Positions 3,683 through 51,506 of a DNA stretch of 64,000 nt are shown here, in pieces. The translations under genes and the position numbers were made by a program. The DNA is from Elusimicrobiota bacterium (GTDB taxonomy: Bacteria; Elusimicrobiota; Elusimicrobia; JACQPE01). The stretch is taken from the NCBI GenBank assembly GCA_016207685.1, contig JACQPE010000004.1, positions 1,559-65,558 on the forward strand. Direction: 5' to 3'. The notes below the pieces were generated by a model. That model did not search any database. It saw nothing but the letters and a program-made list of their open reading frames with translations, and was not told the origin of the DNA. Every line of letters starts with the position of its first letter. The stretch's first letter is position 1.

Positions 3683-5263
3683 TTACGGCGCGAATAATAA
3701 AAAAACGACCACGCCCAAAATGACCGCTGTTGCGGCGGCAGCCACGGTGGCCTTGGCTATTTTCTGCGTTTGGGTATCCTCCCTGGAATCCCCTCGTATC
3801 CGGCGCCATTTTCTGGATTCCTCCGGCGTTAATCCGGTGGAAGACGCCGTTTCTTCCTTATAGTCAATGGTCAATACCTTTTTTTGAAAATTACCCGCGG
3901 CATCCACCGCCGCAATAACCATACGATTTTCTCCTAATTGCAGCGTTGTCTCCATCGAAAAATACCCTTGGCTGTCTGTATCGGCAGATGTCGCTCCCAA
4001 GCGGATGAGCGCCCCGGGCTCCGATCGCCCCTGGATGACCAACGAATTTTTCTTTATCGTTGAGAATTCTTGTTCGGGCTCAGTGATATCCAAAAATGGC
4101 GCTTGGCGGTCCAACGCTAATTTTTGCCAATCGCCAAATGGCCCTTCAAAACCCAAACGATCACGCAAAGAGACCCGATAAACATAAAGTCCGTCATCCA
4201 AACCAGTCCGACCAAAATCAAAAGGTTCCTCAAACGTAGCTGTTTCATCCCAAAGTAAAACGCCCTCCGGGGACTGCGCCACTTGAACACGCAGCAAAGA
4301 AACTTGAGGTATTCTCCGCATGATCCCGGCGCCGCGGCGGCTGCTTCCCATAACCCAACCCAAGGCGCTTCCTCGAAGAACAAAATTCCCTTGGTCTGAA
4401 ATCGTCTTTGTTGATGTAACTACGGATTCAGAATCCCAAAACTTCTCTATCACCACCCGGTTAGGAACTTCCGGCACAGGAACTGCTTGACCCGGAGGCC
4501 GGCCCGCAGGCACCTCCGTGGCAAAACCTTGACGCACAGAAACAGTTTGATTTTGCGCTTGAACATCAGCGACGCCCGCATAAACCTCAACCACTGTGGC
4601 CAAATCTTCGCGTACTCGGGCGCGGTATTCCACATTTTTCGATTTTGGCGTGATTCGGGCCGATTGGGTAACCACGCGAGCGCCCAAAGACCGAATTTCT
4701 CCTGAAATCAGCGCGGCCTCTCCAATGTTTTGCGCACCGGCGCGCTCAGGGCGTATAACGGCAAAAGATTGAGGTCCCAGGACCAAGTCTTCCCCTTGCG
4801 CGAAACGCACCCGCGCTTGGGAGAGCGCGCCGGTGCGCAAGCCGTCATCTTGCCAAATATCCATATTTTTCGAGGCGACTTTCCACAAGGGGGACTCCCG
4901 CCGCCGAAGCTCCACCAGCCGCTGAGTTTCCATGAGCTTAGCTGATCGCAGGCTTTCTTTTACCAATAAAACAGGAATTCTCAAGGTTTGCCCGGGTAAA
5001 GCCATGGCGGGATCCGATGTCGGCAGCTTGTTGTGCCGGGCAATTTCAGGCCAACGGCTAGGGTCCTTGAGATAACGCTCGCTTAAGGACCACCATGTAT
5101 CCCCGGGCTCAATAGCCACTTCTTGATAGAAGCGGGACTCTTCCGCGAAGATAAAATTCCATGTTCCAAGTTCTAGGCTCCAAGTCGAAAATAAAAAAAT
5201 CCCAGCGATTCGGCATCTTGTTTTGAACCGGGAACTGGGAACCGGGAACTGGGAACTAATCAT
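3683..5263 (-). CDS. LysM domain-containing protein with C-terminal transmembrane anchor
   Basis: LysM-like [20 protein letters not shown]...LPGQTLRIP; C-terminal hydrophobic [20 protein letters not shown]; ATG lies 2 nt after the histidine kinase stop (translational coupling); 5' codons are made of the heptamer repeat, so the true start is uncertain. Confidence 0.55.
5225..5256. repeat. heptanucleotide tandem repeat (GAACYGG)x4.5
   Basis: read directly: gaaccgg gaactgg gaaccgg gaactgg gaac, spanning the histidine kinase stop and the start of the LysM gene. Confidence 0.9.
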
Positions 5264-7388
5264 TTATGGGGATCGTGAAACTAAACGTGCTGCCTTGGCC
5301 TGCGGCGCTTTGGACCCAAATTTTACCGCCGTGAGCTTCGACGATTTCCTTGGAAATTAAAAGACCCAGCCCCGTGCCGCCTTTGGAACGCCCTTCAATT
5401 TGCCCATATTTCTTAAAAAGTCTCTGTTGATCTTCGGGAGCAATCCCCTCCCCCGTATCAACAACGTCAATGCGTAAAAATTTTTTTTCTGAAGCATCCC
5501 CCAGGCGCAAGGTGATTCGACCTCCGGAGGGCGTGTATTTCAGCGCATTACCAACAAGATTAATAAAAACTCGTTCAATTAGCGCCGCGTCGCAGGCGGC
5601 GCGGGAATCAAAACCGGAGATGGTCTCCAAGATAAGCTCATTCCCCAAAGCTCGGGCCCTGCCCTCAAACATCTCCACCACGTCGCGAGCCAAATCAGCA
5701 ACATTCACCGGATGCTTGGAAATGGGAATTGCTCCATGCTGAATGCGAAATGAATCCAAAATATTATTAATCATGGTCAACAAACGGCGCGAGGCGCGGT
5801 CCATTTGCGTCAATGCCCAACGCTGCTTTTCCGTCAAAACGCCCATGCCGGGGCCGTGCAACACTTCAATAAAACCGGTAATGCCGTTTAAAGGATTTTT
5901 TAAATCGTGGGTCACCGCTTGCACAAACTCATCTTTCACCGCCTCCATTTGCTTTTCGAGCGTCACATCACGCAAAACCAAAAGCTCGTCTAAAATCAAT
6001 GCCGGGGCGGCGTCATGTTTACCCACGGGCTCAAGATGCAGTTCATAAACTTTCTTCGTATTGGGACCCAGACTCAACTCCATTACCCTTGAGGGCACAT
6101 GGTCTTTTCGAAATGCCTCCACGGCTTCCATTACAAACGCGCGCCAAGGCGCACCTAAAGAATCTGCGTAGGGATGCTCCAAAATTTCCTGGAGCGCCTT
6201 GTCGGAAAAAAGAATTTTTCTGGCCTGCTCATTGGCCAAAACCACGTTCTGATTTTCGAGCAAGACAAGCCCATCGCGCATAGAGGCCATGGTGGCTTCG
6301 GTTTTGGCTTTTTCAGCCAGCAAACGCTCCAATTGAATCTCTGAATAACGCTTCAACTGAATGACCATCGCATCAAAACTGCTTTCAAGCTCCCCTATTT
6401 CATCTCTGCGGCTTTTTAAGGGAGTGATTTCAAATGAACCTTGGGCCACTTGGCGCGCCGCATGGATCAATTTCCATAATGGCCCCAACAGGCGCTGGGC
6501 CACCAACAAAGCCGCTGCCACGGAAACCAAAACGGCAAAAAATAACAACCCGAGCGCTCTCTTGCGGATTAAACGCACGCTGGCATAAGCATCGCTTTGC
6601 GCTTGTTGCGCCAACACCCAATAGGTCCCGCCGCCGATCGACACCGGAGCCCAGGAACCCACCATGGCGCCGGCGCCGTTGGGTAGCTCAAAATGGAGCG
6701 ATCCCATGGCGGCGGGATTTTGTCGCGCCTGGGCCACCAAGGGGTCGTCCCCCAAAATGGTCCCCATGACTGAACCGGACCGCGGGGACAAAAGCGTCCC
6801 TTGGGCATCAACAAAAAAAGCGTTGCCCGTTCCTGAAAACCGCTCCTCGGCTATCGCCTGGGCCAAAGATGCCGCTGATTCCTTAACGGTCAACAAAAGC
6901 TGCCCCTCGATCGTATCTTCGTGCCAAAGTCCGAGAATGGGACCTTGCTGGTTTTGACGGCTGCTCAATAGCGTCAAAACAGCCGCTGACAAGCTCGCTG
7001 AGGCTGGGCGCTTCGTCCAGTCTCCCGGATTGAAATTCCTCTGATATACCCTCAAGAGAACCTGTTTTTTTTCCAGATCCCAAACGGCAACCTCTAAAAT
7101 TTCAGGGTGCGTTTCCAGAAAACTGCTGATCATGCCGCGCTTTTGGCCGACCATGAGATCCCGCCGTTTCAGGATGCCTTTCAAAAATCCAGCCTGCTTA
7201 AGTGAATGCTCATAGCGCTCCCGAACGCGCTGGGCCAAAGATTGTGCTAATTTTGTTTCAAGCTCGAGGGTCGCCGACACCACTTCCTGTTCATTGAGAC
7301 GCAATAAGCGCCCGCCCACGCCCACGAGCGGTATTACGACCATGGCCACGAGCAATAAAGTCAGCTTGAGGCGTATCCCAGGATTCAT
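5256..7388 (-). CDS. sensor histidine kinase (TM sensor-HAMP-HisKA-HATPase_c)
   Basis: H-box [19 protein letters not shown]; ATPase boxes [25 protein letters not shown] and [25 protein letters not shown]; N-terminal TM helix and HAMP-like segment. Confidence 0.85.
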
Positions 7389-7465
7389 GATTAGTGGTCC
7401 TCTACGAAACTCTAGAGGGTATTGCGTGTTAATTCAAGACGGAAGACGGTCCAAAGGAGTTAGAC

Positions 7466-8432: not shown

Positions 8433-8472
8433 AGTTATAGTGTTATAAGGTTATTGAGTTATCGGGTTGACG
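8433..8472. repeat. octanucleotide tandem repeat (RGTTATNN)x5 in the phaC upstream region
   Basis: agttatag tgttataa ggttattg agttatcg ggttgacg read directly. Confidence 0.8.
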
Positions 8473-8818: not shown

Positions 8819-8928
8819 CGCAGGCCGGTTTTCAAATCCCCCCTTTCAAATCATTCATGATCGTCGTTAGATTCTAGGTTTCCAAAATTTTGCTCATATC
8901 TATGACCCCTGACCCTGCATATTTTACT

Positions 8929-9877: not shown

Positions 9878-9895
9878 GTCCAACGTCCAATGTCC
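9878..9895. repeat. heptamer array (GTCCAAY)x2.6
   Basis: gtccaac gtccaat gtcc; inverse complement of the array at 9934..9960. Confidence 0.8.
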
Positions 9896-9933
9896 GCTTT
9901 TTAAAATTTGAAGTAGGGAATTAAAAATTCCAT

Positions 9934-9960
9934 GACTTTGGATTTTGGACTTTGGACTTT
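9934..9960. repeat. heptamer array (GAYTTTG)x4
   Basis: gactttg gattttg gactttg gacttt; the same unit recurs at 24520..24550. Confidence 0.85.
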
Positions 9961-9981: not shown

Positions 9982-12234
9982 TTATTTAGGCAAACTCTTC
10001 GTGTTGCGGCATTTAGGAAACCCTGAGCACGCCAAGAACGGCCCCCTGGGCCCGACACGTTTAAGAAGAAACTTGCCGCATTTTTCGCATTTGAATTCGG
10101 TGATCTCGGGCGCCGGACGGATGACCTTGTTTCCTTGACGGTCTAGACTGATGCTCGTTTTGCACTTCGGATAATCCTGACACGCCAAGTAAAAAAGCCC
10201 GCGCAAGCCTCGCTTCTTAAACATCAACTTACCGCATTTGGGACATTTTTCCTGCGTGACTTCAGGCTCCAAGGGATTGCCCTCTGTATCCAACGACATT
10301 TTATTTGTGCATGTTTCAGGATTATTCTCGCACATCAAGTACTTGCCGAAGCGCCCCTCCTTTAGCAGCATCACGCCGCCGCAGCGGCGGCATTTGTGGC
10401 CTGAATCTTTGGGAACCACGCTGACCTTGCCCATGGCTTTTTGAGCCTTTTGAATCTCCTTGTCAAAAGGCTTATAAAAAGCCTCGATCACCTTTTGCCA
10501 GGGGCGCTCCCCCTCGGCGATGAGATCCAAATCTTCCTCCATTTGGGCCGTAAAGGACAAATCCACCACGTCAGGAAAATGACCTTTAAGCTGTTCGATC
10601 ACCACTTTGCCGATTTCATTGGGATAAAATCGCCGCTCTTTAAGATACACATAGCCTCGGTCAACAACCGTAGCCAACGTCGGAGCGTAGGTAGACGGCC
10701 GTCCAATGCCGTGCTCTTCAAGAGTGCGCACTAGGCTGGCCTCATTGTAGCGCGGCGGAGACGAAGTTTCATGAGACCTGGCCTCAAGCGCATTCGGGAC
10801 GCCTGCCAAAGCCAATGATTCCCCTTCCTTCAGGGCCGGTAAACTCGACGGCTCGTCTCCCTCTCCTTCTTGATAATCTTCGTAGAGTCTCAAAAATCCG
10901 TCAAAAACCAGCCGCCGTCCGGTCGCGCGAAATTTCGCCTGGCCGCCGGCGTCGGCAATCTCAACGGTCATGACATGATAGAGCGCATCCTCCATTTGAC
11001 TCGCTAAAAACCGCCGCCAAATCAAATCATACAAGGCCCCATGGTCCTTTCCTCCCTGATCGCGCGCCATCTTGTACGCCAGCGCGTCTTTGTCCTGATA
11101 AACCGATGTGGGCCGGATCGCTTCATGCGCCTCTTGAGCGCCTTTGGTTTTTGTTTTATAAACAGGAATTTGGGCCGGATAATAATTTTTCCCAAAATTC
11201 TTGGCAATAAAATCCCGCGCCTGCTCCTGGGCCGATCGAGCGACATTGACCGAATCCGTGCGCATATAGGTGATAAAACCGTTCTCGTAAAGCCCCTGGG
11301 CCACGCGCATAGTGCGCTGGGCTGAAAATCCCAGCGCTTGAGACGCCGCCTGGGTCATCGTTGATGTCGTGAAGGGAGCGGCCGGGGAGCGTTTGCGGTC
11401 GGCCTCATCAAGCTTGCTGATACGCAAGGGCAACTGACGCAGTCGCGCGGTCGCCGCCTGCGCTGAAGCGTCATCCTTAAAGATGGTTGATTGGACTTTA
11501 TAAGTTTGAGCAAATAATTGATGCGTCCTTGTCTCGCCCACGACAGAGCCTTGCCACTCCACAAGTTCGGAGCTGAATGTCGCGCCGTTTTTTTCAAATA
11601 TCCCATGAATGCTCCAATAGGTTTCCCTGGCGAATTGATCAATTTCCTTCTCGCGTTCCACAATAAGCCGCACGGTTACCGATTGCACGCGTCCGGCCGA
11701 AAGCCCGCGGCGCACCTTGGCCCAAAGCAAGGGTGAGAGCTTGTAGCCCACCAGCCGGTCTAAAACCCGGCGGGCTTGCTGCGCCGAGACTAGATTTAAG
11801 TCAAGGCCGCGCGGATGCCCGATCGCCTCTTTAATGGCGTCTTTCGTGATTTCATGAAAAACAACCCTCTTGATTTTTGACGCGGGCAGCTTAAGCGTCT
11901 CAACCAAATGCCACGCGATGGCCTCGCCTTCCCTGTCATAGTCCGTGGCCAAAAAAATTTCCTTGGCCCCACGGGAAGCGCTCTTCAGTTCCGAGATCAC
12001 TTTGGTCTTTTTTTCAATGACCACGTATTGAGGCTCAAAATTCTTCTCCAAATCAACCCCAAGATCGCGCTGCGGTAAATCCCGAATATGGCCCATGCTG
12101 CTCTTAACGACAAAATTTTTTCCCAAAAATCCGGCGATCATGCGCTGCTTGGTCGGCGACTCGACGATCACGAGGGCGCCTCCGGAAGACGAGGTTCCTC
12201 TAGCTGCGCTCATAGCCATAGGCGCCGCTGACAA
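9982..12234 (-). CDS. topA: DNA topoisomerase I
   Basis: TOPRIM N-terminus GALVIVESPTKQRMIAGFLGKNFVVKSSMGHIRDL; C-terminal repeated CxxC...CxxC zinc-ribbon modules. Confidence 0.9.
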   Translation of the reverse strand: MSAAPMAMSAARGTSSSGGALVIVESPTKQRMIAGFLGKNFVVKSSMGHIRDLPQRDLGVDLEKNFEPQYVVIEKKTKVISELKSASRGAKEIFLATDYDREGEAIAWHLVETLKLPASKIKRVVFHEITKDAIKEAIGHPRGLDLNLVSAQQARRVLDRLVGYKLSPLLWAKVRRGLSAGRVQSVTVRLIVEREKEIDQFARETYWSIHGIFEKNGATFSSELVEWQGSVVGETRTHQLFAQTYKVQSTIFKDDASAQAATARLRQLPLRISKLDEADRKRSPAAPFTTSTMTQAASQALGFSAQRTMRVAQGLYENGFITYMRTDSVNVARSAQEQARDFIAKNFGKNYYPAQIPVYKTKTKGAQEAHEAIRPTSVYQDKDALAYKMARDQGGKDHGALYDLIWRRFLASQMEDALYHVMTVEIADAGGQAKFRATGRRLVFDGFLRLYEDYQEGEGDEPSSLPALKEGESLALAGVPNALEARSHETSSPPRYNEASLVRTLEEHGIGRPSTYAPTLATVVDRGYVYLKERRFYPNEIGKVVIEQLKGHFPDVVDLSFTAQMEEDLDLIAEGERPWQKVIEAFYKPFDKEIQKAQKAMGKVSVVPKDSGHKCRRCGGVMLLKEGRFGKYLMCENNPETCTNKMSLDTEGNPLEPEVTQEKCPKCGKLMFKKRGLRGLFYLACQDYPKCKTSISLDRQGNKVIRPAPEITEFKCEKCGKFLLKRVGPRGPFLACSGFPKCRNTKSLPK

Positions 12235-13384: not shown

Positions 13385-14239
13385 TCAGTCTTGTTCATTG
13401 CGGCGCGGCAAGCGCATCACGCCGTCGCCCAAAGAAATCGCGTCGTGGGAATAAATGATTTGGCACTCCGCGCGCTCATCAAAAACCTCATCGGTCACGC
13501 GCACTCTGCCGACGCGCTCGATGAGCCAATAACGCTTGCGTGTTCGCGGATCCGTCGCCTGCCGGGTCTTGCGAATAACCGCTAATTCATCTCCTGGCAC
13601 CAGCCCATCTCTGGACCCTAGGCTAATAAAAATAATGTCCCCCTGCGAGAGCATCACCAACTCCTTGTCGCGGCTGGAAATGATCCGGCCGTCATAATTC
13701 GTGAACTCTCTCTGACGAATAATCCGCCGCTGGGAATTGGTCGCGGTGGATACGGCCATTGTCCCTTCGCTTCCATCGCCCGCAGGAATATCGCTTTCAG
13801 CGGCCTCGGCCACGGGGGTCATTCCGGCCTTGGTTTCTGCGCCCCGTGGTTCTTGTTGAGGCTTGGCCGCCGCCATTGTTGGTTGTTCAGAAGCCTGATG
13901 TTCGGATGCGCCCAATTTTTTTATATCCCCCCTGGAGGCCCCGGAAACATAATCCGGCCCCGGCAGCTTTAATACCTGCCCGGGAACAAGTTGATTAGGA
14001 TCTTTCAAGATGTCGCGATTGATGTCATAAATCGCGCTCCAATCATAACCGTTTTCCCTGAATAAAACCGCGATCTGCCAAAGGGTGTCGCCTTTAACGA
14101 CAACGTAGCGCTCCTCCAAAATTTCCTCTTCGGCCCCGGCCGCGCTGATCTGACATAAAACGCAAGCGGCCATGGCCGCTTGAATAAATATTATCTTTCG
14201 TGACCCCTGACCCCTGACCCATGACCGCTTATTCCTCAT
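13385..14239 (-). CDS. secreted LysM domain protein
   Basis: LysM YVVVKGDTLWQIAVLF...VPGQVLKLP; start moved to MRNKRSW (14239) to avoid a 71-nt overlap with comM; N-terminus reads as a signal peptide and its first codons are the (TGACCCC)n repeat. Confidence 0.55.
   Translation of the reverse strand: MRNKRSWVRGQGSRKIIFIQAAMAACVLCQISAAGAEEEILEERYVVVKGDTLWQIAVLFRENGYDWSAIYDINRDILKDPNQLVPGQVLKLPGPDYVSGASRGDIKKLGASEHQASEQPTMAAAKPQQEPRGAETKAGMTPVAEAAESDIPAGDGSEGTMAVSTATNSQRRIIRQREFTNYDGRIISSRDKELVMLSQGDIIFISLGSRDGLVPGDELAVIRKTRQATDPRTRKRYWLIERVGRVRVTDEVFDERAECQIIYSHDAISLGDGVMRLPRRNEQD
14201..14226. repeat. heptamer array (TGACCCM)x3.7
   Basis: tgacccc tgacccc tgaccca tgacc; a 2-unit copy (tgacccctgaccctg) occurs at 8903..8917. 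Confidence 0.9.
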
Positions 14240-16583: not shown

Positions 16584-17340
16584 TTATTGGATTTTTTGAA
16601 GCACATACATCACATTTTTGACAGACCAAAGCCGAAGCCGTAAAACCAATTGTGCCACTCGCGTCAAAAAAATGGACCACTTCATCCGATTGTTCGTCAT
16701 GAACAGAAATCTGGTTAGCAAACGGGGATCAAGGCCGTTGATCACCAACTCTACCCCGCGCGGAAATTTCATATTTGCCGGCCTGATGCATTGATCATGC
16801 CCCTGACCATGACGTATAAAAATAAGCCCCCCGGGCGCCAAGAGATCGACATACTCTGCCAGAACCTTCCGGTGGACCTCCCCGGCTTCTTTCGCCGAGC
16901 TAAAAAATTTCCGGGTAAATGGATGGAACTCCCGGATATAAATCAAATCGTACCGGCCTTGCGCCACGTCTCGGTTGGCTTTGGGATCCGTGCCATCGGC
17001 CACCAAAAAATTGACACCCTCCACGGAACCGTTTCTTTGGCGAGCGATTGCAACTCCCGCATCGGACAAGTCAAAGGCGGTTACTTCTTTCGCTAAGCAC
17101 CGCAGTGCCAGCGTCAAATGTCCCAGACCGCAGCCGACCTCAAGACACCGCCGGATTGTGTGTGTGTGTGTGTGTGTGCTTTTCTATCAGAACAGAAACC
17201 AAATAAACATCTTTAAATACGCGCCATTTCTCCACGATGGTGCTGTTGTGTTCGACCTTGGGGTCGCCTCGGGCATACCCAGCGTTTTGACCGCGCACAT
17301 GATCCATCATCTTATCTCGAACAAAATCAATGTTCCCCAT
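16584..17340 (-). pseudogene. class I SAM-dependent methyltransferase with reading frame broken at a (CA)11 tract (possibly phase-variable rather than dead)
   Basis: Rossmann motif I LEVGCGLGHLTLALR is in frame with ORF 16584..17117 but upstream of its TTG start; the N-terminal part is ORF 17140..17340 ending ...EKHTHTHTH-NPAVS*; one extra CA unit would fuse the two frames. Confidence 0.5.
17157..17178. repeat. (TG)11 dinucleotide microsatellite
   Basis: read directly: 22 nt of alternating tg. Confidence 0.95.
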
Positions 17341-22994: not shown

Positions 22995-24376
22995 GCGCCT
23001 AATTCCTTCGCCAATGCGCTGATTAATCGCTTAAACTCTTCTCCACGATGCTCATAATGGCGGAATTGGTCAAAAGAGGCGCAGGCTGGAGAAAGAACGA
23101 TCAAATCTCCGGTTGAGGCATTCATTAAGGCGGCGCGCATCGCCAGTTCCAACGTTTGACAGCGCTCGCCATCGAATGCCGCATGTAGTTCCTTAAAAAT
23201 CAACTGATTCGCCTCTCCGTAACAATAAAATTTTTTGACTTGACCGCCGCGCGCGGCAATCGGGGCATATGATGCGCCCTTATCCTGCCCCCCTAGAAGC
23301 AAATGGATTTTTCCCCCTCTTGATAGCGCCAAGGGTTCCAGCGCCCGCAAAGCCGCGACCACGCTATCCACATTGGTCGCTTTTGAATCATTGATGAATA
23401 ACACATCCCGGATGCTGCCTGCGCGCTCGAGACGATGCGGCGGCGGTTGATACGTCTCCAGGGCCTCTTCAACGCCCACGCGCGGCATATCCGCCTCCAA
23501 AACGGCCAAAAGGGCAGCCATCTGGTTTTCCAAATTATGAACTCCCATTAAATTTGGCGCCGGCTTCATATCATAAGAACGCGCCCCGCGCTGACCGGAA
23601 TAACGGACGCGAAGCATGCCTCCCTCAAACCATGCGCCCTCTTGGAGAGAGCGCGCTGAACTAAAAAAAACGCGGCGGCTTGATGCCCGCTCCAGAACGG
23701 CCCTGGCCGCGGCATCCTCAAAATTACCCACGCCAAGACCTGCGACTTTGACAAAGTCGAACAATTTCGCCTTGGCCGAAACATAATTTTCCCAACTACC
23801 ATGATGGCTTAAATGATCCGCGGTGATGTTCATCAAAACGCCGCAATCAAGCGTCAATGAGGCAGAATCCTCCAGTTGGTAGCTCGAAATTTCCAAAATC
23901 AACGCATGCTTGTTCGTTATTTGGTCAATCGCCTCGATCAGGGGCGAACCAATGTTGCCCGCCGCCAGAGCCGGATAACCGCAAGTTCTAAATAGGTGGC
24001 CGGTCAAATCCGTGGTTGTTGTTTTGCCGTTGGTGCCGGAAATGCCGATGATTATTTTTGGCTTTATCGCCATTGCTCCAAAGGCGAAATCCATCTCGCT
24101 TAAGATGGTCTTGCCCGATTCATTCAATTTTTTAAATATCGATGACCGTGGATCAAGCCCCGGGCTTTTAATGACATAACGCGCCTTCAGCACCGCGTCC
24201 GAATGGCCGCCCAACTCAATGAGCGCCCGAGGGTGGGCTTCCTTGGCGGATTTCCCCAACAAAGGGCTCGCGGCGTTATCGCTGGCTAAAACTTTTGCCT
24301 TGGGATGGCGGCGCCGCAAAAAACGCAACGCGGCCAATCCCGATTTGCCTAATCCCAGGACAGCGTAGTCGAACAC
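22991..24376 (-). CDS. murD: UDP-N-acetylmuramoyl-L-alanine--D-glutamate ligase
   Basis: Mur-ligase P-loop IGISGTNGKTTTTDL; dcw context. Confidence 0.85.
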   Translation of the reverse strand: MFDYAVLGLGKSGLAALRFLRRRHPKAKVLASDNAASPLLGKSAKEAHPRALIELGGHSDAVLKARYVIKSPGLDPRSSIFKKLNESGKTILSEMDFAFGAMAIKPKIIIGISGTNGKTTTTDLTGHLFRTCGYPALAAGNIGSPLIEAIDQITNKHALILEISSYQLEDSASLTLDCGVLMNITADHLSHHGSWENYVSAKAKLFDFVKVAGLGVGNFEDAAARAVLERASSRRVFFSSARSLQEGAWFEGGMLRVRYSGQRGARSYDMKPAPNLMGVHNLENQMAALLAVLEADMPRVGVEEALETYQPPPHRLERAGSIRDVLFINDSKATNVDSVVAALRALEPLALSRGGKIHLLLGGQDKGASYAPIAARGGQVKKFYCYGEANQLIFKELHAAFDGERCQTLELAMRAALMNASTGDLIVLSPACASFDQFRHYEHRGEEFKRLISALAKELGA

Positions 24377-24390
24377 TAGCGGGGGCCCAA

Positions 24391-24415
24391 CGTCCGGCGT
24401 CCGGCGTCCGGCGTC
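24391..24415. repeat. heptamer array (CGTCCGG)x3.5
   Basis: cgtccgg cgtccgg cgtccgg cgtc, 15 nt upstream of the murD start codon. Confidence 0.9.
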
Positions 24416-24519
24416 TTAAGCCTGAAAATAAAAAATTTAATAATGAAATCAGAGAGTGTAACAATGGAAAAATGAAAATCCGAAAATCCAAACTTCCATA
24501 CTCCAAATTTTTTTGATTT

Positions 24520-24550
24520 GACTTTGGACTTTGGACTTTGGACTTTGGAC
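24520..24550. repeat. heptamer array (GACTTTG)x4.4
   Basis: gactttg gactttg gactttg gactttg gac, ending 5 nt from the mraY stop codon. Confidence 0.9.
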
Positions 24551-24554
24551 TTCT

Positions 24555-25652
24555 TCATCTCACTTTCAAACTGGCCAAAGCAATGAGGGCCAAAATAACC
24601 CCGACCACCCAAAATCGAACCACAACTTTGGGCTCGGCCGCCCCCAAAAGCTCGAAGTGGTGATGAACGGGCGACATTTTAAAAATTCTCTTGCCCTTGG
24701 TCATGCGGAAATAGCCCATCTGAATAACCACGCTCAAGGATTCGGCCAAAAAAACACCGCCGATCACGGGCAGCAAAATCTCCTGCTTGGAGACAATGGA
24801 GACGAACACCAGCAAGGACCCCAACGGCAGCGATCCTGTGTCTCCCATAAAAATTTGCGCCGGATAACTGTTGAACCATAAAAATCCTAAACCCGCGCCG
24901 ATCAAAGCGGAAAGAACGATCGTGAGTTCCCCCGCGGCCGGCACTGAAATAATGCGCAAATACTGAGAAAACCGGGCATGCCCCGCGGCATAGACGAACA
25001 CGAGCATCGCGGAGGCCGCAATCACCAAATTACCGATCGCGAGTCCATCCATGCCGTCGGTTAAATTAACGCTGTTGGAAAATCCAACGAACAAGAGCAT
25101 CACCAGGAAAAAATAAAACACATGCAAATTAAGATAAGTCTCTTTGATAAAAGGCACATTAACGCTCAAAGCGAATTGGGCATTGGGGGGATAAAGCGCC
25201 AGATAAAAAGCGAACGCCGAGGCCGCGCCGATTTGAAGCAAGAATTTAACCCTGGAGCTTACGCCTTCGGCCCTGCCCTCGCGCCTCGGCGCGTGAATTT
25301 TGAGCCAGTCATCCCAAAACCCGAGCGCTGCAAATAAAAAAAGCAGCAATTGCGCCATCAGCACATAGCGGTTATCCGGGCGCGCCCATAAAAACACCGT
25401 CAACATCATCACCGCAATAATTAAAAGTCCCCCCCCAACGGCAATTCCTGTTTTGGTTTGATGGGAATCCGGACCCCAGACTTTGGGTTTATTGACCATT
25501 CCATGAGCCAAAAGCGTTCGAATCATCCAGGGTCCCATAAACAAACACACGGCGAAGGCCGTCACGGCCGCTGCCCCGGCCCTGAAGGTGATGTAAGAAA
25601 ATACATTGAGGCCAAAATAGCTGTGGCGTAACAGAGAAAGATAATAGAGCAT
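24555..25652 (-). CDS. mraY: phospho-N-acetylmuramoyl-pentapeptide transferase
   Basis: polytopic membrane protein with MraY blocks IFMGDTGSLPLG and PVHHHFEL. Confidence 0.9.
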   Translation of the reverse strand: MLYYLSLLRHSYFGLNVFSYITFRAGAAAVTAFAVCLFMGPWMIRTLLAHGMVNKPKVWGPDSHQTKTGIAVGGGLLIIAVMMLTVFLWARPDNRYVLMAQLLLFLFAALGFWDDWLKIHAPRREGRAEGVSSRVKFLLQIGAASAFAFYLALYPPNAQFALSVNVPFIKETYLNLHVFYFFLVMLLFVGFSNSVNLTDGMDGLAIGNLVIAASAMLVFVYAAGHARFSQYLRIISVPAAGELTIVLSALIGAGLGFLWFNSYPAQIFMGDTGSLPLGSLLVFVSIVSKQEILLPVIGGVFLAESLSVVIQMGYFRMTKGKRIFKMSPVHHHFELLGAAEPKVVVRFWVVGVILALIALASLKVR

Positions 25653-25768
25653 TAAACTGTCACTGACATATAGCCTCGAAAAAAATTATTTTCCAGCCCG
25701 GACGATTCGCTCTTCGCTCTCTGGGCCGCGTTTCGCGTTTCGCCGCTTTTGGACTTTGGCCATCCTAT

Positions 25769-27220
25769 TTAAAACTCCCTTTTTAGATCACTAATCAATT
25801 CTTCAAGAGCCTCGGCCCGCGATGCCTTAAATAACACCGCTCCTGGCGGAGGATATAAAAATAGTTGCCGCTTAATAAGTTCCAATGCCTCTCCTCTCGT
25901 CGCAAAAATGACCTTGGGTCCCATTTTGCCGAATTCCTGGTTCAAGCCCATGGCCAAGCGCTCGGCCGCGAACCGGCCCGTCACCACAAAAACCACGCGT
26001 TCATTGATGAGACCGGCCCCTTTGGCTTGCCGGGCGATGCTGGCGCCTGTTTGATAATGCAGCTCCATCTCACGACTGCCCAGCTCACGCATTTCCCCCA
26101 AAACGACGATGCGCGTTCCCTCGCGGGCGCCGGCCAAAAACCCGATGACGCTATCCTCCATGGAAGCGGGATTGGCATTGTACGCGTCATTAATGGCGAC
26201 AAACTGTTCAGCTAGCGCCGGACTTAAATCAATGCGATCGCCGCGCAGGGAAACCGGAGTAAATTTTAAAAGTCCTTGCAAAATTTTCTTGACCGGAACT
26301 TTGGCGGCCAAGCCGCAGGCTGCGGCGGCAAGCGCGTTTTTCATAGGTCCCAAGGCTGTCATGGGGATCATCGCCTCGCCCAAAAATTTTTCTTGGTACA
26401 TGATCTCCAACAAGGTTCCCTTGGCGCTGCGACTCTTAATGCGCCCCTGAACATCGGCGCCGGGCTCAAAACCAAAACTTAAATAACCGCAACCAGGCCA
26501 CAACGCCGGAAGCCTGGATAGCCAGGGATCCTCTTTCCCATAAATAACCTGGCCGCCGGGTTCAAGGCCGCGTAAAATTTCGGACTTCGTCTCAAAAATA
26601 GTTTTTTCGTCGCCAAAAGTCGCCAGATGCGCCGGCGCGATGTTGGTCAAAACAACAATCTGGGGTTTGCCGGCCAAAGACAAAGGCTCAATATCGCCCT
26701 TTTTCCGCGCTCCCATTTCCCAAACTGCGAAACGATGCTTCTCGGAAAGTTCAAGAATAGACAACGGACAGCCCACTTCATTATTAAAATTACCGCGACT
26801 GCTGGTAACGGGGCCTGATTGGGAAAGAACTCCGGCAATCATTTCCCTCGTTGTTGTTTTACCGTTGCTGCCGGTGACGCCCACGACGGTGACTTGGGAA
26901 AAAAGAGCCCGGTGCGCTTGGGCCAAAGCCAATAACGCATCCAGACCGCGCCTCACTAAGATGATCGCCCCCTGGGCAGAAGCAGGGGGCCGGGGCTCGC
27001 GACTCACCAAAGCGCCCAAGGCTCCGCTGGCCAAGGCATCAGGCACAAAATCATTGCCGTCTTTATTGGCGCCTTCAATGACCCAGAAAAGTTCTCCCTT
27101 GGCGATTCGCCGGGAATCAACGGCGATTGAAGACACGGCTTGCCGTGGATCGCCTTGAAGCAACCGCCCATGGCAAGCATCCGCAATTCTTCCCAGAGTC
27201 CAATGCTTCAAGAGCTCCAT
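25769..27220 (-). CDS. murF: UDP-N-acetylmuramoyl-tripeptide--D-alanyl-D-alanine ligase
   Basis: P-loop VGVTGSNGKTTTREM and Mur-ligase C-terminal domain. Confidence 0.85.
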   Translation of the reverse strand: MELLKHWTLGRIADACHGRLLQGDPRQAVSSIAVDSRRIAKGELFWVIEGANKDGNDFVPDALASGALGALVSREPRPPASAQGAIILVRRGLDALLALAQAHRALFSQVTVVGVTGSNGKTTTREMIAGVLSQSGPVTSSRGNFNNEVGCPLSILELSEKHRFAVWEMGARKKGDIEPLSLAGKPQIVVLTNIAPAHLATFGDEKTIFETKSEILRGLEPGGQVIYGKEDPWLSRLPALWPGCGYLSFGFEPGADVQGRIKSRSAKGTLLEIMYQEKFLGEAMIPMTALGPMKNALAAAACGLAAKVPVKKILQGLLKFTPVSLRGDRIDLSPALAEQFVAINDAYNANPASMEDSVIGFLAGAREGTRIVVLGEMRELGSREMELHYQTGASIARQAKGAGLINERVVFVVTGRFAAERLAMGLNQEFGKMGPKVIFATRGEALELIKRQLFLYPPPGAVLFKASRAEALEELISDLKREF

Positions 27221-27241
27221 TGTTTTATAATTTCATCATAT

Positions 27242-28195: not shown

Positions 28196-28204
28196 GAGAT
28201 CGTC

Positions 28205-37055: not shown

Positions 37056-38800
37056 GTCGGCCCCTGATGCACAACATTGACATTTTGCGCTGACAATGCG
37101 GGCTTAAGTCCCATATTCACAATCGCTTCCTGCATTATTTTCTTAAACAATGGGGCCGCCAAGTCGCTGGCCCAGGCCACTTTAGGCTTGCGCGGATCAT
37201 CCAATATCACACAGGCGGCCAATTCCGGTTCCGGCATGGGCAAGGCGCCACAAAATGAAACGACAACATGATTTGGCGTATGGAGTCTGGTTTTCGGATC
37301 AATTTTCTGTGCCGTCCCTGTTTTTCCGGCCGTTGGATATCCGGCCATTTGAGCGGACTTGCCAGTTCCCTGTGCCACCACGCCTTCCATCAAAACCATG
37401 GCGCGCTTGGCCGCATTTTGAGGTAATGCTTGACGGACTTTCCGCGAAGAAAACGCGTAAAGCCGGCGCTCCTCGCGAAAACCCTTAATGCGATCAACAA
37501 TCTGGGGTTCAAGCAAAATGCCGCCGTTGGCCAAAGCCGCGTACGCTTGCGTTAATTGAAGCGGCGTCGTTCCGATTTCATATCCAAATGACATCATGGG
37601 CAAACTGACAGCGCTCCATCCCGCGGGCGGCCGGACAATGCCGACCGATTCTCCCGTGACGGGGAGCGCGGTTCTTGAGCCGAAACCAAACGCCCGATAG
37701 GCCTGATAAAGACCTTCCTGGCCGAGAGCCATGCCGATCTTGGCAAAACCGATATTTGAAGAATGCGCTATCACGGCGCTCAAGGGAATCAACCCATAAG
37801 GCTCATGGTCGGAAATCGTCAGGCTCGGCGTTGGATGCCAGCGCCCATTCTCGCAATCAATTTCATCTGTCTCTTGGACAACGCCGGCGTCCAATGCCGC
37901 CGCCAACACAAAAGGCTTGACAACGCTGCCCGGCTCAAAGGTATAACTCACGGCCAAATTAGGGTCCAGACTAAATCCCAATCCATCCTCAAAACCAGCT
38001 TCGGTGCGGCTCGCCATGGCCAAAAGCGCTCCCGTCCTGACATGAACGACTACGGCCACGGCGGCGCGGGCGTCCTGATGGGCCAGCGCTTCTTCCAAAT
38101 GAGCTTCCGTGCTTGATTGCAACTGAGCATCCAGCGTTAAATAAACATCAAAGGGTCCTTCGTCATGGCCGCGACTCCAGGGCCAGATCGCCATGCTCTC
38201 CGGCCGATCCTCTTCAGCAAACACCTTTCCTAAGGCATCCCGCAAAACAACACGCACCTCCTCTTTCCCTTGCAGCAGGGGATTAAGCTGCCTCTCAAGG
38301 CCGGATGTCCCCTCGCCGTCAATGCCCACGGAACCGATCAACTCCGCTGCCGTTTTCCCCCAGGGATAACGGCGCTTGGATTCAAGCTCAATTCCGATTC
38401 CCTTAATTCCCAGGCGCCTTAACGCCTCGGCCTCATCGGCAACGACCTGACGTTTGATCCAAACAAAATTCGACGATCCCCGAAGGCGGCGCATGAGGTC
38501 GCGTTGGTCAACACCTGAAATAACACGCGCGATTTGAAGCGCCAGGCGCTCGGGTGGAATATCGGTCTCTCGACGCGACACAAACAAAGACGGCATCTCG
38601 ACCGATACCCCAAGAACCCGGCCTCGCCGGTCAAGGATCCGCCCTCGCATGGGGCGGACACGCCTTGTTTGAACAACCTCGGAAGCTGTCATCTTGGCGT
38701 AAGAACCGTGCCTCACAATCTGAAGCTGGCCTAACCGGACAGCCACGGCGCCATAGAGAAAAAAAATCGCAGCCAAAGGCAGAAAGAGCCGGAAAGTCAT
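37052..38800 (-). CDS. ftsI: peptidoglycan D,D-transpeptidase FtsI (PBP3)
   Basis: SxxK (SVVKPF), KTG (AGKTGTAQK) and a dimerisation domain; start set at MTFRLFLPLAAIF (38800), because the ORF-track N-terminus MALFHFELGTWNLELGT is the translated heptamer repeat. Confidence 0.85.
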   Translation of the reverse strand: MTFRLFLPLAAIFFLYGAVAVRLGQLQIVRHGSYAKMTASEVVQTRRVRPMRGRILDRRGRVLGVSVEMPSLFVSRRETDIPPERLALQIARVISGVDQRDLMRRLRGSSNFVWIKRQVVADEAEALRRLGIKGIGIELESKRRYPWGKTAAELIGSVGIDGEGTSGLERQLNPLLQGKEEVRVVLRDALGKVFAEEDRPESMAIWPWSRGHDEGPFDVYLTLDAQLQSSTEAHLEEALAHQDARAAVAVVVHVRTGALLAMASRTEAGFEDGLGFSLDPNLAVSYTFEPGSVVKPFVLAAALDAGVVQETDEIDCENGRWHPTPSLTISDHEPYGLIPLSAVIAHSSNIGFAKIGMALGQEGLYQAYRAFGFGSRTALPVTGESVGIVRPPAGWSAVSLPMMSFGYEIGTTPLQLTQAYAALANGGILLEPQIVDRIKGFREERRLYAFSSRKVRQALPQNAAKRAMVLMEGVVAQGTGKSAQMAGYPTAGKTGTAQKIDPKTRLHTPNHVVVSFCGALPMPEPELAACVILDDPRKPKVAWASDLAAPLFKKIMQEAIVNMGLKPALSAQNVNVVHQGPT

Positions 38801-38813
38801 GGCGGACAATAGA

Positions 38814-38848
38814 GTTCCAAGTTCCAAGTTCCAAGTTCCAAGTTCAAA
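38814..38848. repeat. heptamer array (GTTCMAA)x5
   Basis: gttccaa x4 then gttcaaa, 14 nt upstream of the ftsI start. Confidence 0.9.
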
Positions 38849-38896
38849 ATGGAAAAGGGCCAAAAAAAGCAGGGCTTCTTTTCCCTCTTGACTTTT

Positions 38897-38924
38897 AACT
38901 TGGAACTTGGATATTGGAACTTTC
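38897..38924. repeat. heptamer array (AACTTGG)x4, inverse complement of 38814..38848
   Basis: aacttgg aacttgg atattgg aactttc. Confidence 0.85.
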
Positions 38925-38930
38925 TGCTGA

Positions 38931-39203
38931 TCATGGCATCACCCGGAGCTTTTCAGCAACCGGATAATCTGTGGGCAACCGATAACCTTGTTCGCGCGCC
39001 TTGATGGCCGTGATCTTATAAAACTGAATTTGTGCCAACTTAAATTCCATTTGAGCCAATTCTAAATCAAGGCCTTGAAGTTTTTCCCTCAAGCTTGCCA
39101 CCCGGTAGCCGCTTTGAACAACAAGAGTGCGCATCCAGACAACGGTCAAAAATGATAGGGCAACCCCCGGAATAATAATTAAGACTTTGACGCCGGATTT
39201 CAC
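38931..39203 (-). CDS. ftsL: cell division protein FtsL
   Basis: 90 aa, single N-terminal TM helix (VLIIIPGVALSFLTVVW) then coiled coil; position between rsmH and ftsI. Confidence 0.5.
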   Translation of the reverse strand: MKSGVKVLIIIPGVALSFLTVVWMRTLVVQSGYRVASLREKLQGLDLELAQMEFKLAQIQFYKITAIKAREQGYRLPTDYPVAEKLRVMP

Positions 39204-39250
39204 TCGCGCCGCCTTGAAAAACCAAAAGAATGCCGAATGCCGGAATCTAA

Positions 39251-39360
39251 AACGTCGAATTTCGAACGTCGAATTAAGGAACAGGGAAAATTTTGAATTT
39301 TAAATTTTGAATTTTGAATTAAGGAATTCATTTTATTTGTCATTTGAGATTCGTCATTCG
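39251..39360. repeat. compound short-tandem-repeat region: (CGTCGAA/TTTCGAA)x3, (AATTTTR)x4, (GTCATTY)x2
   Basis: aacgtcgaatttcgaacgtcgaatt ... ttttgaattttaaattttgaattttgaatt ... gtcatttgagattcgtcattcg; related to 51470..51506. Confidence 0.85.
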
Positions 39361-40265: not shown

Positions 40266-40670
40266 GCATTACCGGCGGCATCTGCCGGAGGGCCGCCCTT
40301 CATCTATTACAGATCGAGGGAGGAAATTCCGAACTCCGCAGAGCCAGGGTGCCGTCTAAAAGGCGGGGCGCCCGTTGGAGACAACCGGCGCACGGACAGT
40401 GCCACAGAAACGAAACCACCCCATGATCCGTCACGATTAAGGGGAACGGGTGAAACCGTGAGGTAAAAGCTCACGCAGAATCATAGAAATATGAATCCGG
40501 AGGAAAACCCCACCTGGAGCAAGGCTGGATTTAGGAAAACTCCGCCAGGTCAGGCTCAAGACCGGGGTTCCTAAGTCCCTGCAAAGCAGAACGCCGCTTA
40601 GATAAATGGTCCTCGCTTGATTTTTACATCAAGCACAGAATTCGGGGTACAGGCAAGCCGCCGGTAATGC
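40266..40670 (+). ncRNA. rnpB: RNase P RNA (bacterial type)
   Basis: P4-region block GAGGAAAUUCCGAACUCCGCAGAGCCAGGGUGCCG (cf. GAGGAAAGUCCGGGCUCC...GGGCAGGGUGCCAGG); also CACGGACAGUGCCACAGAAACGAAACCACC, GGUGAAACCGUGAGGUAAAAGCUCAC and CCACCUGGAGCAAGGCUGGAUUUAGG; 14-bp terminal helix gcattaccggcggc/gccgccggtaatgc. Confidence 0.8.
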
Positions 40671-40716: not shown

Positions 40717-40751
40717 GCGCACCGGATCAAAAGGTGCGCTGTTTGTTGTGG
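40717..40751 (+). terminator. putative terminator hairpin after rnpB (overlaps the rnhA stop)
   Basis: gcgcacc-ggatcaaaa-ggtgcgc stem-loop then tgtttgttgtgg. Confidence 0.4.
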
Positions 40752-41206
40752 ACGGATAAACGGGCCAACCGATCGGCCATGCTATTTTGTTCGCGCGGGA
40801 CATGGTTGATATCCACTCTTTCAAAATGACGCTCCAACGTTTTAGCCTCCAAAGAAAGTTTTTGAAGCTTGGCATCCCGAATCTTGTACTTCCCTTTGGC
40901 TTGCTGGGCCAATAGCTGGGAATCGGTAAAAACAGCGATTACCTTGGCGCCTCGATCACGGCCTTCTTTTAAGGCGCGAAGGTACGCGCTCCACTCGGCA
41001 ATGTTATTGGTGCCATGGCCTAGGTATTCGGAAATCTCCGCCACGGTCTCTCCGCCCTCGCCAACAAGCCAAACGCCGATGCCTGCCGGCCCCGGATTAA
41101 ACCGGCAAGCGCCGTCAATGTAAGCGACCAATTTTACTGATCTATCCATAGCGCGCCTCGTTTCGCTGGGCGCAGGGTGCGGGGCAGAACAAAATATCTT
41201 CGACAA
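40727..41206 (-). CDS. rnhA: ribonuclease HI
   Basis: LVAYIDGACRFNPGPAGIGVW, TNNIAEWSAYLRAL, FTDSQLL; probable true start at MDRSVKL (41149). Confidence 0.8.
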   Translation of the reverse strand: MSKIFCSAPHPAPSETRRAMDRSVKLVAYIDGACRFNPGPAGIGVWLVGEGGETVAEISEYLGHGTNNIAEWSAYLRALKEGRDRGAKVIAVFTDSQLLAQQAKGKYKIRDAKLQKLSLEAKTLERHFERVDINHVPREQNSMADRLARLSVHNKQRTF

Positions 41207-50497: not shown

Positions 50498-51448
50498 TTA
50501 CCGCCGTTTTCTTTTGAGAACTTTCTCGACGTACTCAATGGGGTCGGCTTTGCGCTCGAGAAGGTTGCCCAAGTCCACATCGGAAACCTTGGAGTCAATG
50601 GCCTGCCATAGCCTTTCCATCATCATGAGGCGGACTTCCGTGCGGATAGACTCCTTTTTGCGGCGTTCCCATTCGCCCGAGTCTTTCATGTGGCGCTCAT
50701 GGTCGTCAATGGTGGATAAAAGCCCTTCGGCGCCGTCTCCGGAGACCGAGTTGACCGCCATGACCGGGGTTTTCCACGCCCCTGATTTGCGCACGTCCAT
50801 GCTAAAAATATTCTTCCAAAACGTAATCGCCCGGTCCGTGCCTTCGGTATCTGATTTGTTGACCGCCACCATATCGGACATCTCGATAATGCCCGCTTTC
50901 ATGGCCTGCACCTCGTCTCCCAGGGTGGGCACCGTCACATAAACCGTGGTCTGGGCGACCTTGGCGATCAAGGTGTCATCCTGGCCGCTGCCCATGGTTT
51001 CAATAAAAATAAAATGCTTGCCGCTGGCCTCCATCACATGCACGAGAGAATAAATTTTTCGCGTCAATGAATCCAGGCTTTGCGCGCCGCCCGGCACCGA
51101 CCGGATAAAAACGCCTTCATCGTTGGCAATCTCCTGCATCCGGATGCGGTCCCCCAAAAAAGAGCCATGGCTGATGGGACTCGTGGGGTCAATCGAGAGC
51201 ACGCCCACGGTTTGCCCGCGTTTGCGCACCGCTTTAGCTAATTGGAAAATGAGCGAACTCTTGCCCACGCCCGTGGATCCGGTAATGCCGATAATCCGGG
51301 CATTACCGCCATACGGGTAAATTTTCTGCAGAAACTTAACGCTCGCCCCGTCGCCGTTTCGCTCCACCAAGGAAAGCCCTCTGGCAATGGCGCTCATCTC
51401 GCCGGAAATTACTCCGAGAACAAGTTCTTTTAATTCAAATGGCAGCAT
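50498..51448 (-). CDS. meaB: methylmalonyl-CoA mutase-associated GTPase MeaB/ArgK
   Basis: P-loop GITGSTGVGKSSLI and G-protein motifs. Confidence 0.85.
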   Translation of the reverse strand: MLPFELKELVLGVISGEMSAIARGLSLVERNGDGASVKFLQKIYPYGGNARIIGITGSTGVGKSSLIFQLAKAVRKRGQTVGVLSIDPTSPISHGSFLGDRIRMQEIANDEGVFIRSVPGGAQSLDSLTRKIYSLVHVMEASGKHFIFIETMGSGQDDTLIAKVAQTTVYVTVPTLGDEVQAMKAGIIEMSDMVAVNKSDTEGTDRAITFWKNIFSMDVRKSGAWKTPVMAVNSVSGDGAEGLLSTIDDHERHMKDSGEWERRKKESIRTEVRLMMMERLWQAIDSKVSDVDLGNLLERKADPIEYVEKVLKRKRR

Positions 51449-51469
51449 AAGGACACCTCTCTTCTAAAA

Positions 51470-51506
51470 ATTTTCAATGACGATTTTCGAATGACGAATT
51501 TCGAAT
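51470..51506. repeat. (TTTCGAA/TGACGAA) 14-mer tandem repeat x2.5
   Basis: ttttcaatgacgattttcgaatgacgaatttcgaat; shares the core GACGAATTTCGAA with 39251..39275. Confidence 0.85.

Follow-up and report, generated by a model that had tools for sequence, protein, structure and literature searches.

Heptanucleotide tandem repeats at gene junctions and in translatable sequence of an Elusimicrobiota genome segment

Many of the gaps between genes in and around the dcw (division and cell wall) cluster of an Elusimicrobiota bacterium carry short head-to-tail repeats of a 7-nt unit. The question raised by this locus is what generates such arrays, and how they are accommodated amongst genes that have to be translated. 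The DNA that we analysed (the window) is the stretch of 64,000 nt from position 1,559 to 65,558 of contig JACQPE010000004.1 (assembly GCA_016207685.1), and all window results refer to these 64 kb, a single contig of an Elusimicrobiota metagenome-assembled genome (MAG). A first-pass annotation had listed a series of heptamer loci, described as intergenic and often as inverted pairs. We find that the arrays are real and statistically strong, and that they are probably slippage-generated heptanucleotide repeats of the class known as long simple-sequence repeats (LSSR) or short tandemly repeated repetitive sequences (STRR), filtered to low-constraint sites that are compatible with translation.

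Tandem Repeats Finder returned 39 rows for the window, 21 with period 7 and a further three with period 14. For a comparison between periods, a single mismatch-tolerant scoring rule was applied to every period from 4 to 15, with a null of 20 shuffles built by resampling the dinucleotide transitions of the window. Under this common rule there were nine arrays at period 7, three at period 14, one at period 6 and none at periods 4, 5, 8–13 or 15, against a shuffle expectation of 0–0.05 arrays per period. Perfect arrays with at least three copies occurred four times at period 7 (3.6–5.0 copies) and not at all in the window at periods 4, 5 or 8–15. Head-to-tail iteration of a 7-nt unit thus exceeds chance, and period 7 exceeds the neighbouring periods from 5 to 11. 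The self-match at lag 7 in the gap DNA between genes was 0.352, with values of ~0.25 at other lags and in coding DNA, and lag 7 was the top lag in 14 of 28 gaps.

The arrays form ~10 distinct loci spread across 46 kb of the window. Both Tandem Repeats Finder and reading of the sequence placed every locus named in the first-pass annotation at, or a few bases from, the position given there. Three to five copies had been attributed to each; at 8903, TGACCCC has two copies only, and a 4.6-copy array at 39289 had been overlooked. Fourteen of 17 arrays lie within the ~5% of the window initially scored as non-coding. Of the 19 co-directional gaps, 9 have arrays, as against none of the eight divergent or convergent ones (hypergeometric P ~0.02), the same pattern as in Xanthomonas. 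The sole long non-heptamer array of the window is a perfect (TG)11 at 17157–17178, which lies in a divergent gap, upstream of the gene for pyruvate phosphate dikinase; a rare non-heptamer junction array, of period 8 (AGTTATAG, 3.8 copies, 72% match), lies at 8433–8462 in the gap after an alpha/beta hydrolase gene.

Several arrays that had been called intergenic are in fact within genes. Those at 29649–29742 lie in a coding sequence, and exact-sequence look-up of the NCBI annotation put those at 5157/5225, 14201 and 24391–24552 within annotated protein open reading frames (ORFs). The three arrays at 29649–29742 occupy residues ~482–513, the linker of a 794-aa two-domain aldehyde dehydrogenase, and its reading frame is kept. 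The 526-aa LysM protein starts, according to NCBI, at the ATG at 5263, so that both the 5157 and 5225 arrays are in its N-terminus; the 284-aa LysM protein starts at 14239, and its 14201 array is an insertion relative to the orthologues. In the two LysM proteins the arrays fall within the first 10–35 codons. The NCBI start of FtsI, a TTG at 38827, also falls within an array, that of 38813. The signal-peptide coding region (QAAMAAC) of the 284-aa protein contains, just downstream of its array, a perfect 20-nt palindrome, CAAGCGGCCATGGCCGCTTG (14163–14182, minus strand), that a scan flagged as terminator-like.

A second claim, that the arrays belong to operon-internal 5' untranslated regions, is doubtful and unsupported as stated, given the arrays in annotated coding sequence and the finding that every array-bearing gap is stop-free in a sense frame. 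At mraY-murD, an ORF of 60 codons has an ATG that overlaps the stop of mraY (as ATGA) and a TAG stop that overlaps the murD GTG (as TAGTG); at ftsL-ftsI, one of 45 codons has an ATG that overlaps the stop of ftsL (as ATGA) and a TGA stop that overlaps the ftsI ATG (as ATGA). We refer to these as relay ORFs. At rsmH-ftsL, one sense frame stays open through the spacer until a GTGA at the start of ftsL; at murF-mraY, the murF frame, past its TAA stop, stays open for another 38 codons until a TAATG at the start of mraY; and at topA-xerC, a frame is open from −4 (topA stop) to +5 (xerC start). Relative to the five downstream start codons, the open frames end at −2, −2, +1, +1 and +5. At the histidine kinase-LysM and comM-LysM junctions, the open frame is the downstream gene's own.

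A stop-free sense frame was present in 8 of 8 array-bearing gaps, with an antisense one in 2 of 8; the array-less co-directional gaps gave 2 of 10. Mononucleotide shuffles predict 2.2 open sense gaps of 8 (joint P ~5e-6), and a conservative null, in which the arrays are fixed and the other bases shuffled, predicts 3.9 of 8 (joint P ~0.002). Sense ORFs of at least 100 codons (stop to stop) span 11 of 15 arrays and antisense ORFs one of 15; this strand-specific test took the place of one that accepts a spanning ORF on either strand, which ORFs extended in the upstream direction confound. By inspection, none of the ~19 window units contains a stop triplet on the sense strand and 4 of 17 contain one in antisense, the probability of a random heptamer being stop-free being ~0.71. 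Because 7 leaves a remainder of 1 on division by 3, an array of stop-free heptamers can be read in all three frames and gives the same cyclic 7-residue peptide in each, and arrays are therefore able to occupy linkers, tails and junction ORFs. It had been argued that a unit of 7 is not explained by codon structure. This is true, yet the arrays of the aldehyde dehydrogenase linker, and those of MurD, MurE and MurG loops in relatives, are read in frame all the same.

To assess the inverted pairs, we folded the gaps in gene sense and compared the energies with shuffles. Four gaps formed significant hairpins: ftsL-ftsI (−56.3 kcal/mol, z = −7.6), mraY-murD (−50.3 kcal/mol, z = −3.2), topA-xerC (−29.1 kcal/mol, z = −3.25) and histidine kinase-LysM (−34.9 kcal/mol, z = −2.9). 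These junctions are alike, with a 5' arm of (AAGTYCN)n and a 3' arm that is its complement; the stems are long and AT-rich with large loops, whereas intrinsic terminators have a short GC-rich stem, a loop of 3–8 nt and then a U-tract; the topA-xerC hairpin is nevertheless followed by U6AU3. No significant structure was found against shuffles at the rsmH-ftsL, 51449, 14156, 25653 and 8819 gaps, rsmH-ftsL being weaker than its own shuffles (z = +1.9). Two of the pairs proposed earlier, 9878/9934 and 38813/38897, are truly complementary, whilst 24391/24520 and 29651/29709 are not. The 24520 array pairs instead with a decayed one at ~24460–24500, and 5157/5225 is an additional pair that had gone unlisted. 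Promoter and terminator consensus scans gave nothing specific at the arrays and did not flag the array hairpins, and a search of Rfam 15 at the gathering thresholds gave no covariance-model match on any array, returning only a fragment of a group II intron, two tRNAs and an RNase P RNA.

Comparison of sense and antisense stability and of G:U pair counts gave no consistent asymmetry: both strands fold about equally, with similar G:U counts, and there is thus no sign of RNA-specific selection on the hairpins. This absence of strand bias would also suit arrays that act as DNA-level structural or protein-binding sites (G-quadruplex (G4), i-motif or nucleoid protein) selected for their 7-bp periodicity, as would the CGAATKN/AATGACG unit family described below, whose orientation to transcription is opposite in the window and in the related genome L146. 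A pattern of four G3+ runs on one strand is present at two array sites only (5230 and 29714); most units (the AAGTYCN family, AATTTTG and CGAATTT) are not G4-capable, so at most two arrays are concerned. The units are, moreover, too diverse for a single binding protein, and the arrays avoid divergent, promoter-containing gaps. A DNA-level role is accordingly most unlikely.

The history of the junctions was examined in the dcw loci of relatives with 63–77% MraY identity (L144, L146, L149 and L150–L152); the best species-representative genome has a MraY 51% identical to that of the window, and the best FtsI match in JGI/ENA metagenome contigs is at 55% identity. In the 63–77% relatives, the junctions are 0–33 nt long, with 0–2 heptamer arrays per 17–21 kb. 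Between L144 and the window, mraY-murD goes from 10 to 178 nt, murF-mraY from 8 to 116 nt, rsmH-ftsL from 23 to 150 nt, topA-xerC from 15 to 114 nt and ftsL-ftsI from an overlap to 130 nt. Both the arrays and the expanded junctions are thus derived in the window lineage. The mraY-murD junction seems to be a recurrent insertion site: in a relative with 68% MraY identity (L150 11136–13771 and L151 9629–12264), an ORF of 195 aa and a toxin-antitoxin pair (AbiEi/AbiEii) split it.

Where arrays are present in relatives, they show turnover at conserved positions. The aldehyde dehydrogenase linker carries CCGCAAC (PQPATRN) in the window, CCGCTCC (PLPAPRS) at the same site in L149 and a decayed form in L144, which points to homogenisation at a persistent locus. 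In L146, MurD has (AACTCAA)4.6 in a variable loop, its length unchanged, and (ACGAATK)4.6 encodes the C-terminus; in L152, an array falls in the first codons of MurF, as judged from its position relative to the gene table. An ORF spans the L146 mraY-murD hairpin, starting in an ATGA at the stop of mraY and terminating 1 nt short of the murD ATG. The arms of this hairpin (11104–11202) repeat every 9 nt (AAAGGYTCA / TTTTGAACC), and it has a GTTCAAA core in common with the heptamer family of the window; the period of the arms is thus not always 7.

The source being a MAG, the arrays could be assembly artefacts of a short-read metagenome bin, and two Logan contigs of a relative (L147 and L148, from different sequencing runs) do both end within the murD (AACTCAA) array, at the equivalent of L146 position 12005. 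These breaks may reflect heterogeneity of copy number but prove nothing. The arrays of the window are at most 37 nt long and have unique flanking sequence. The three linker arrays keep the 794-aa ORF in frame at a length like that of its orthologues (793 aa in L144, 796 aa in L149), and orthologous arrays are present in independent assemblies, which makes an artefact vanishingly unlikely.

The expansion of the junctions, by 100–170 nt over relatives, might instead reflect insertion of small mobile elements, similar to MITEs (miniature transposable elements with inverted repeats) or to the REPIN form of repetitive extragenic palindromic (REP) sequences, with the arrays as terminal inverted repeats. 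The inverted-pair architecture, the presence of the AAGTCCA unit at both 9934 and 24520, and a 7-nt direct repeat (GCCATGA) flanking the ftsL-ftsI insert would fit such an origin. However, GCCATGA consists mostly of the functionally required ATGA overlap and is the sole flanking direct repeat, at one locus. The spacers and loops are dissimilar, the only self-match of the window being the GACTTTG array itself; no transposase or RAYT-like gene was found in the 64 kb; and a large number of arrays stand alone as direct repeats or are located in loops of proteins. With neither conserved loops nor a transposase, a MITE/REPIN origin is unsupported, and we consider it highly improbable. A 12-mer common to two spacers (TTTTTTATTTTC) was not above chance.

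That units recur between loci, as first proposed, was borne out: identical units are shared by four pairs of different loci against 0.19 expected, and 17 inter-locus pairs are within one mismatch against 3.7 expected (P <= 0.001). The main family, AAGTYCN, is found at 5157, 5225, 9878, 9934, 24520, 29649, 29663, 38813 and 38897, and a second, CGAATKN/AATGACG, at 39251 and 51470; the AATGACG-family unit of 51470 is also present at the murD end in L146. In exact scans of IMG/VR, (AAGTCCA)3 was found in 18 loci and (AATGACG)3 in 33, with two shuffled control units in 8 and 4, a modest preference with too few controls behind it. The orthologous arrays that differ in copy number and unit between related genomes support the proposal that the arrays are slippage-prone simple-sequence repeats with shared unit families.

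The same architecture recurs in other lineages. Eighty distantly related dcw loci (1.29 Mb) contained 30 period-7 arrays and no more than nine of any other period. The heptamer-rich ones are from Nitrospinota (L023, with 10 arrays in 16.8 kb; L027, with 6 in 9.2 kb; and L035), Desulfobacterales (L054 and L055) and Pyrinomonadaceae (L061), and many of their arrays are inverted pairs at junctions of co-directional genes. L023 and L027 (83% DNA identity) share pairs at murF-mraY (CAGAAGA/TCTGTCT) and ftsW-murG (AGCAATG/CTCATTG) that differ in copy number and unit variants; in L035 (70–78% identity), the murF-mraY junction is ~22 nt and has no array. One loop of MurG is arrayed in all three species, with three different heptamer units, and a MurE loop also carries an array. 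Copy number and unit thus vary at conserved positions amongst related genomes here, as they do between the window and L149. In L023 and L027, MurF reads through the whole murF-mraY hairpin as a conserved 32-residue tail and stops 8–15 nt before mraY, the two spacers differing by 12 nt, an in-frame difference. The intercistronic gaps of these Nitrospinota dcw loci also contain a dispersed hairpin-forming repeat of ~75–100 nt with 89% identity (L023 11118–11191 and 16470–16548; L027 9099–9174), which looks REP- or MITE-like and distinct from the heptamer arrays. The IMG/VR contigs with matches held 57, 21 and 91 period-7 arrays, with at most 18 of any other period. Contigs L154 (2666–4933), L159 and L170, classified as viral and ranging from 36% to 67% GC, have many heptamer arrays; in L154, ~200 nt are a nearly continuous run of GGACTTT/GGACTTC/GGACGTT units.

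Do the relay ORFs and hairpins then have a function? The arrays and hairpins could be adaptive cis-regulatory devices, in which relay ORFs melt the hairpin and keep neighbouring genes coupled, whilst copy number modulo 3 would set the downstream frame and so tune coupling heritably and reversibly, or turn the two LysM proteins on and off by phase variation. The ATGA...TAGTG and ATGA...ATGA arrangements at mraY-murD and ftsL-ftsI, the frame ends close to all five downstream starts and the open sense frames of all eight gaps speak for such devices, and the equivalent ATGA...TGA ORF over the L146 hairpin and the MurF read-through in L023 and L027, kept despite the 12-nt spacer difference, extend the pattern to other genomes. 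Yet the relay peptides are not conserved, murF-mraY and topA-xerC have no start codon near the upstream stop, sense stop avoidance is absent from other heptamer-rich lineages, and arrays are also found within essential enzymes, where one unit more or less would be lethal. Regulation of this kind is consequently doubtful, and the control of translation or termination by copy number that had first been suggested is unsupported as stated. A bolder version, which we judge unlikely, would make the stop-free arrays of this clade frame-neutral, slippage-tunable adaptors within translated sequence, with relay ORFs keeping coupling across dcw junctions expanded by 100–180 nt and copy number modulo 3 acting as a reversible three-state switch for coupling and for the LysM wall-binding proteins with N-terminal arrays.

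We return to slippage as the probable generator. Replication slippage in 7-nt steps would create arrays and keep remodelling them in this Elusimicrobiota lineage, and arrays would survive only where constraint is low and the transcript stays readable: at co-directional junctions, in N- and C-terminal tails, in signal-peptide n-regions, in interdomain linkers and in surface loops. A stop-free array would be tolerated in translated sequence as it specifies one cyclic 7-residue peptide in whichever frame it is read. Where a spacer lies between an array and its complement, the transcript is predicted to form an imperfect hairpin of 25–33 bp whose base brings the upstream stop near the downstream start, and read-through or relay ORFs may preserve the translational coupling that relatives obtain from overlapping or adjacent stop and start codons. 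Most arrays would on this account be neutral or tolerated.

Several points weigh against slippage followed by such a filter. Recurrence of unit families across loci and relatives is not predicted by pure random slippage, and hints at a sequence-specific factor or at spread. The 7-nt step size is not accounted for. Sense-strand stop avoidance was not seen in the loci from Nitrospinota and other genomes (11 of 23 on each strand, p = 1.0), and the strand bias was weak in the IMG/VR loci (15 of 47 versus 24 of 47, p = 0.09), and the filter for compatibility with translation may thus be specific to the lineage or in part a chance effect. Finally, 64 kb of the genome are visible and the nearest relative in the collections has only 77% MraY identity, so that slippage in this organism is deduced from comparison of sequences rather than seen directly.

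The features of the window are collected in Table 1.

Table 1. Heptamer arrays and relay ORFs of the window (window coordinates; copy numbers follow the unit)
Feature	Coordinates	Strand	Location and remarks
Degenerate (CTTGGAA)x~4	5157–5185	-	3' arm to the 5225 array
(AGTTCCC/GGTTCCC)x4.7 in gene sense (GAACCGG/GAACTGG)	5225–5257	-	begins at the histidine kinase TAG stop; hairpin 5' arm
(TGACCCC)x2, weak	8903–8917		downstream of xerC
(GGACNTT)x~2.7	9878–9897	-	topA-xerC hairpin 3' arm; ends 4 nt before the xerC GTG
(AAGTCCA)x3.9	9934–9960	-	topA-xerC hairpin 5' arm
(GGGGTCA)x3.7 in sense	14201–14226	-	encodes SWVRGQGSR, signal-peptide n-region of the 284-aa LysM protein
60-codon relay ORF	24376–24558	-	entire mraY-murD spacer; NCBI hypothetical protein MBI4368632.1
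(GACGCCG)x3.6	24391–24415	-	stops 14 nt short of the murD GTG; no complementarity with the 24520 array
Decayed complementary array, TTTGGAN-like	24460–24500	-	3' arm for the 24520 array
(AAGTCCA)x4.7	24520–24552	-	begins 2 nt past the mraY stop; hairpin 5' arm
Two short arrays, 2.1 and 2.4 copies	25706–25743	-	murF-mraY spacer
(AAGTTCA)x2.6 then (AAGTCCG)x2.7	29649–29681	+	interdomain linker of the 794-aa aldehyde dehydrogenase ORF (28205–30589)
(CCGCAAC)x5.0	29708–29742	+	aldehyde dehydrogenase linker; encodes PQPATRNPQPAT
45-codon relay ORF	38797–38934	-	ftsL-ftsI; not annotated by NCBI
(TGGAACT)x4.7 in sense	38813–38845	-	ftsL-ftsI hairpin 3' arm; ends 12 nt before the ftsI ATG at 38800
(CCAAGTT)-type array	38891–38923	-	ftsL-ftsI hairpin 5' arm
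Direct arrays (CGGCATT)x2.1, (CGACGTT/CGAAATT)x3.3, (CAAAATT)x4.6	39228–39320	-	rsmH-ftsL spacer; no hairpin
14-nt super-unit x2.7 (AATGACG/ATTTTCG on the + strand)	51470–51506	-	between the B12-binding-domain gene and meaB

Other features of the window were noted in passing. A DeoC-family aldolase gene and the 794-aa aldehyde dehydrogenase gene (27140–30589, plus strand) lie on the opposite strand within the dcw cluster, between murE and murF, a placement conserved in the clade (window, L144, L149 and L150). A class A bacterial RNase P RNA (176 bits, 40275–40665, plus strand) is directly upstream of rsmH and the dcw cluster, on the opposite strand, and is adjoined by an RNase H-like gene (40727–41206). 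A fragment of a group II intron (D1-D4 in Rfam, 62 bits, 61092–61267, minus strand) has no recognisable reverse-transcriptase ORF nearby; it adjoins a 169-aa ORF (61322–61831, no Pfam match), near which is a two-copy (GGGGTTA) repeat at 61303.

The window adds a deep-branching, uncultured phylum to the lineages that bear heptamers. With the Nitrospinota and Desulfobacterales loci, an arrangement in which one array follows the stop and another precedes the start, the two often forming an inverted pair, is seen to recur across phyla, and arrays kept at one protein loop or linker whilst the unit is replaced give a clean signature of homogenisation. Arrays in translatable sequence in this clade contradict the usual intergenic picture. 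If they are only tolerated by-products, there is still a lesson for annotation, in that 'intergenic' spacers and odd short ORFs need careful calling of starts and stops.

How do these arrays compare with known heptamer repeats? The cyanobacterial STRR heptamers (CCCCAGT, TTGGTCA and CAACAGT in Calothrix, Anabaena and Nostoc) had been named as the nearest analogue, fairly so, though the class is broader and better documented than was assumed. As with STRR, there are several heptamer units per genome in tandem arrays that include sites within operons. The phylum is another one, read-through ORFs are not described in the STRR literature that we found, and no tandem copy of the three STRR units is present in the window, which thus lacks STRR in the strict sense. 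Like REP/REPIN and MITE sequences, the arrays form hairpins in intercistronic spacers of operons; unlike them, they have no conserved element or loop and no associated transposase here, and their arms are internally periodic.

The earlier view that such arrays are not a standard bacterial feature was overstated, heptamers being the dominant long simple-sequence repeat class in many prokaryotes and the Xanthomonas arrays being alike (PMC4679880, PMC4692102). As those two papers relay it, Mrazek et al. (2007) found heptanucleotides to be the most over-represented long class in many prokaryotes and suggested that it stems from slippage of the DNA polymerase with a 7-nt contact. The dominance of heptanucleotides, the patchy phylogenetic distribution and the proposed slippage are all shared with the LSSR of 5–11 nt of that survey as relayed, in which coding-region units are multiples of three, whereas here heptamers are in coding or translatable sequence. 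In marine Beggiatoaceae, TAACTGA arrays lie just upstream of start codons (MacGregor 2015, PMC4679880). These resemble the window arrays in having 2–6 copies a few nt from starts and in sometimes overlapping ORF ends, and a role in translation was proposed for them; they consist of a single unit of fixed orientation that contains stops (TAA/TGA), whereas the window arrays are stop-free in sense and often form inverted pairs, and TAACTGA has zero occurrences in the window.

Among the closest likenesses are the G-rich repeats of Xanthomonas and Nostoc (GGGAATC, GGGGAYT). Rehm et al. (2015) counted 183–186 GGGAATC-type arrays per Xanthomonas genome, between aligned ORFs and within 50 bp of start or stop codons, with 70–75 inverted pairs and with positions 83% conserved between species whilst length varies (PMC4692102). 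The window arrays are likewise tandem 7-nt units, typically of ~4 copies, between co-directional ORFs near start and stop codons; many are inverted pairs capable of forming stem-loops; and position is conserved in related species whilst length varies. Neither GGGAATC nor GGGGATT is found in tandem in the window, which sets it apart from the G4-forming GGGNATC class: in contrast to those G-rich repeats, its units are diverse, mostly not G4-capable, and mostly in stop-free sense frames or annotated coding sequence. Our literature search found no description of heptamer arrays in Elusimicrobia. The repeat class is thus a known one, whereas the lineage is new, and so is the location in translatable sequence with relay ORFs.

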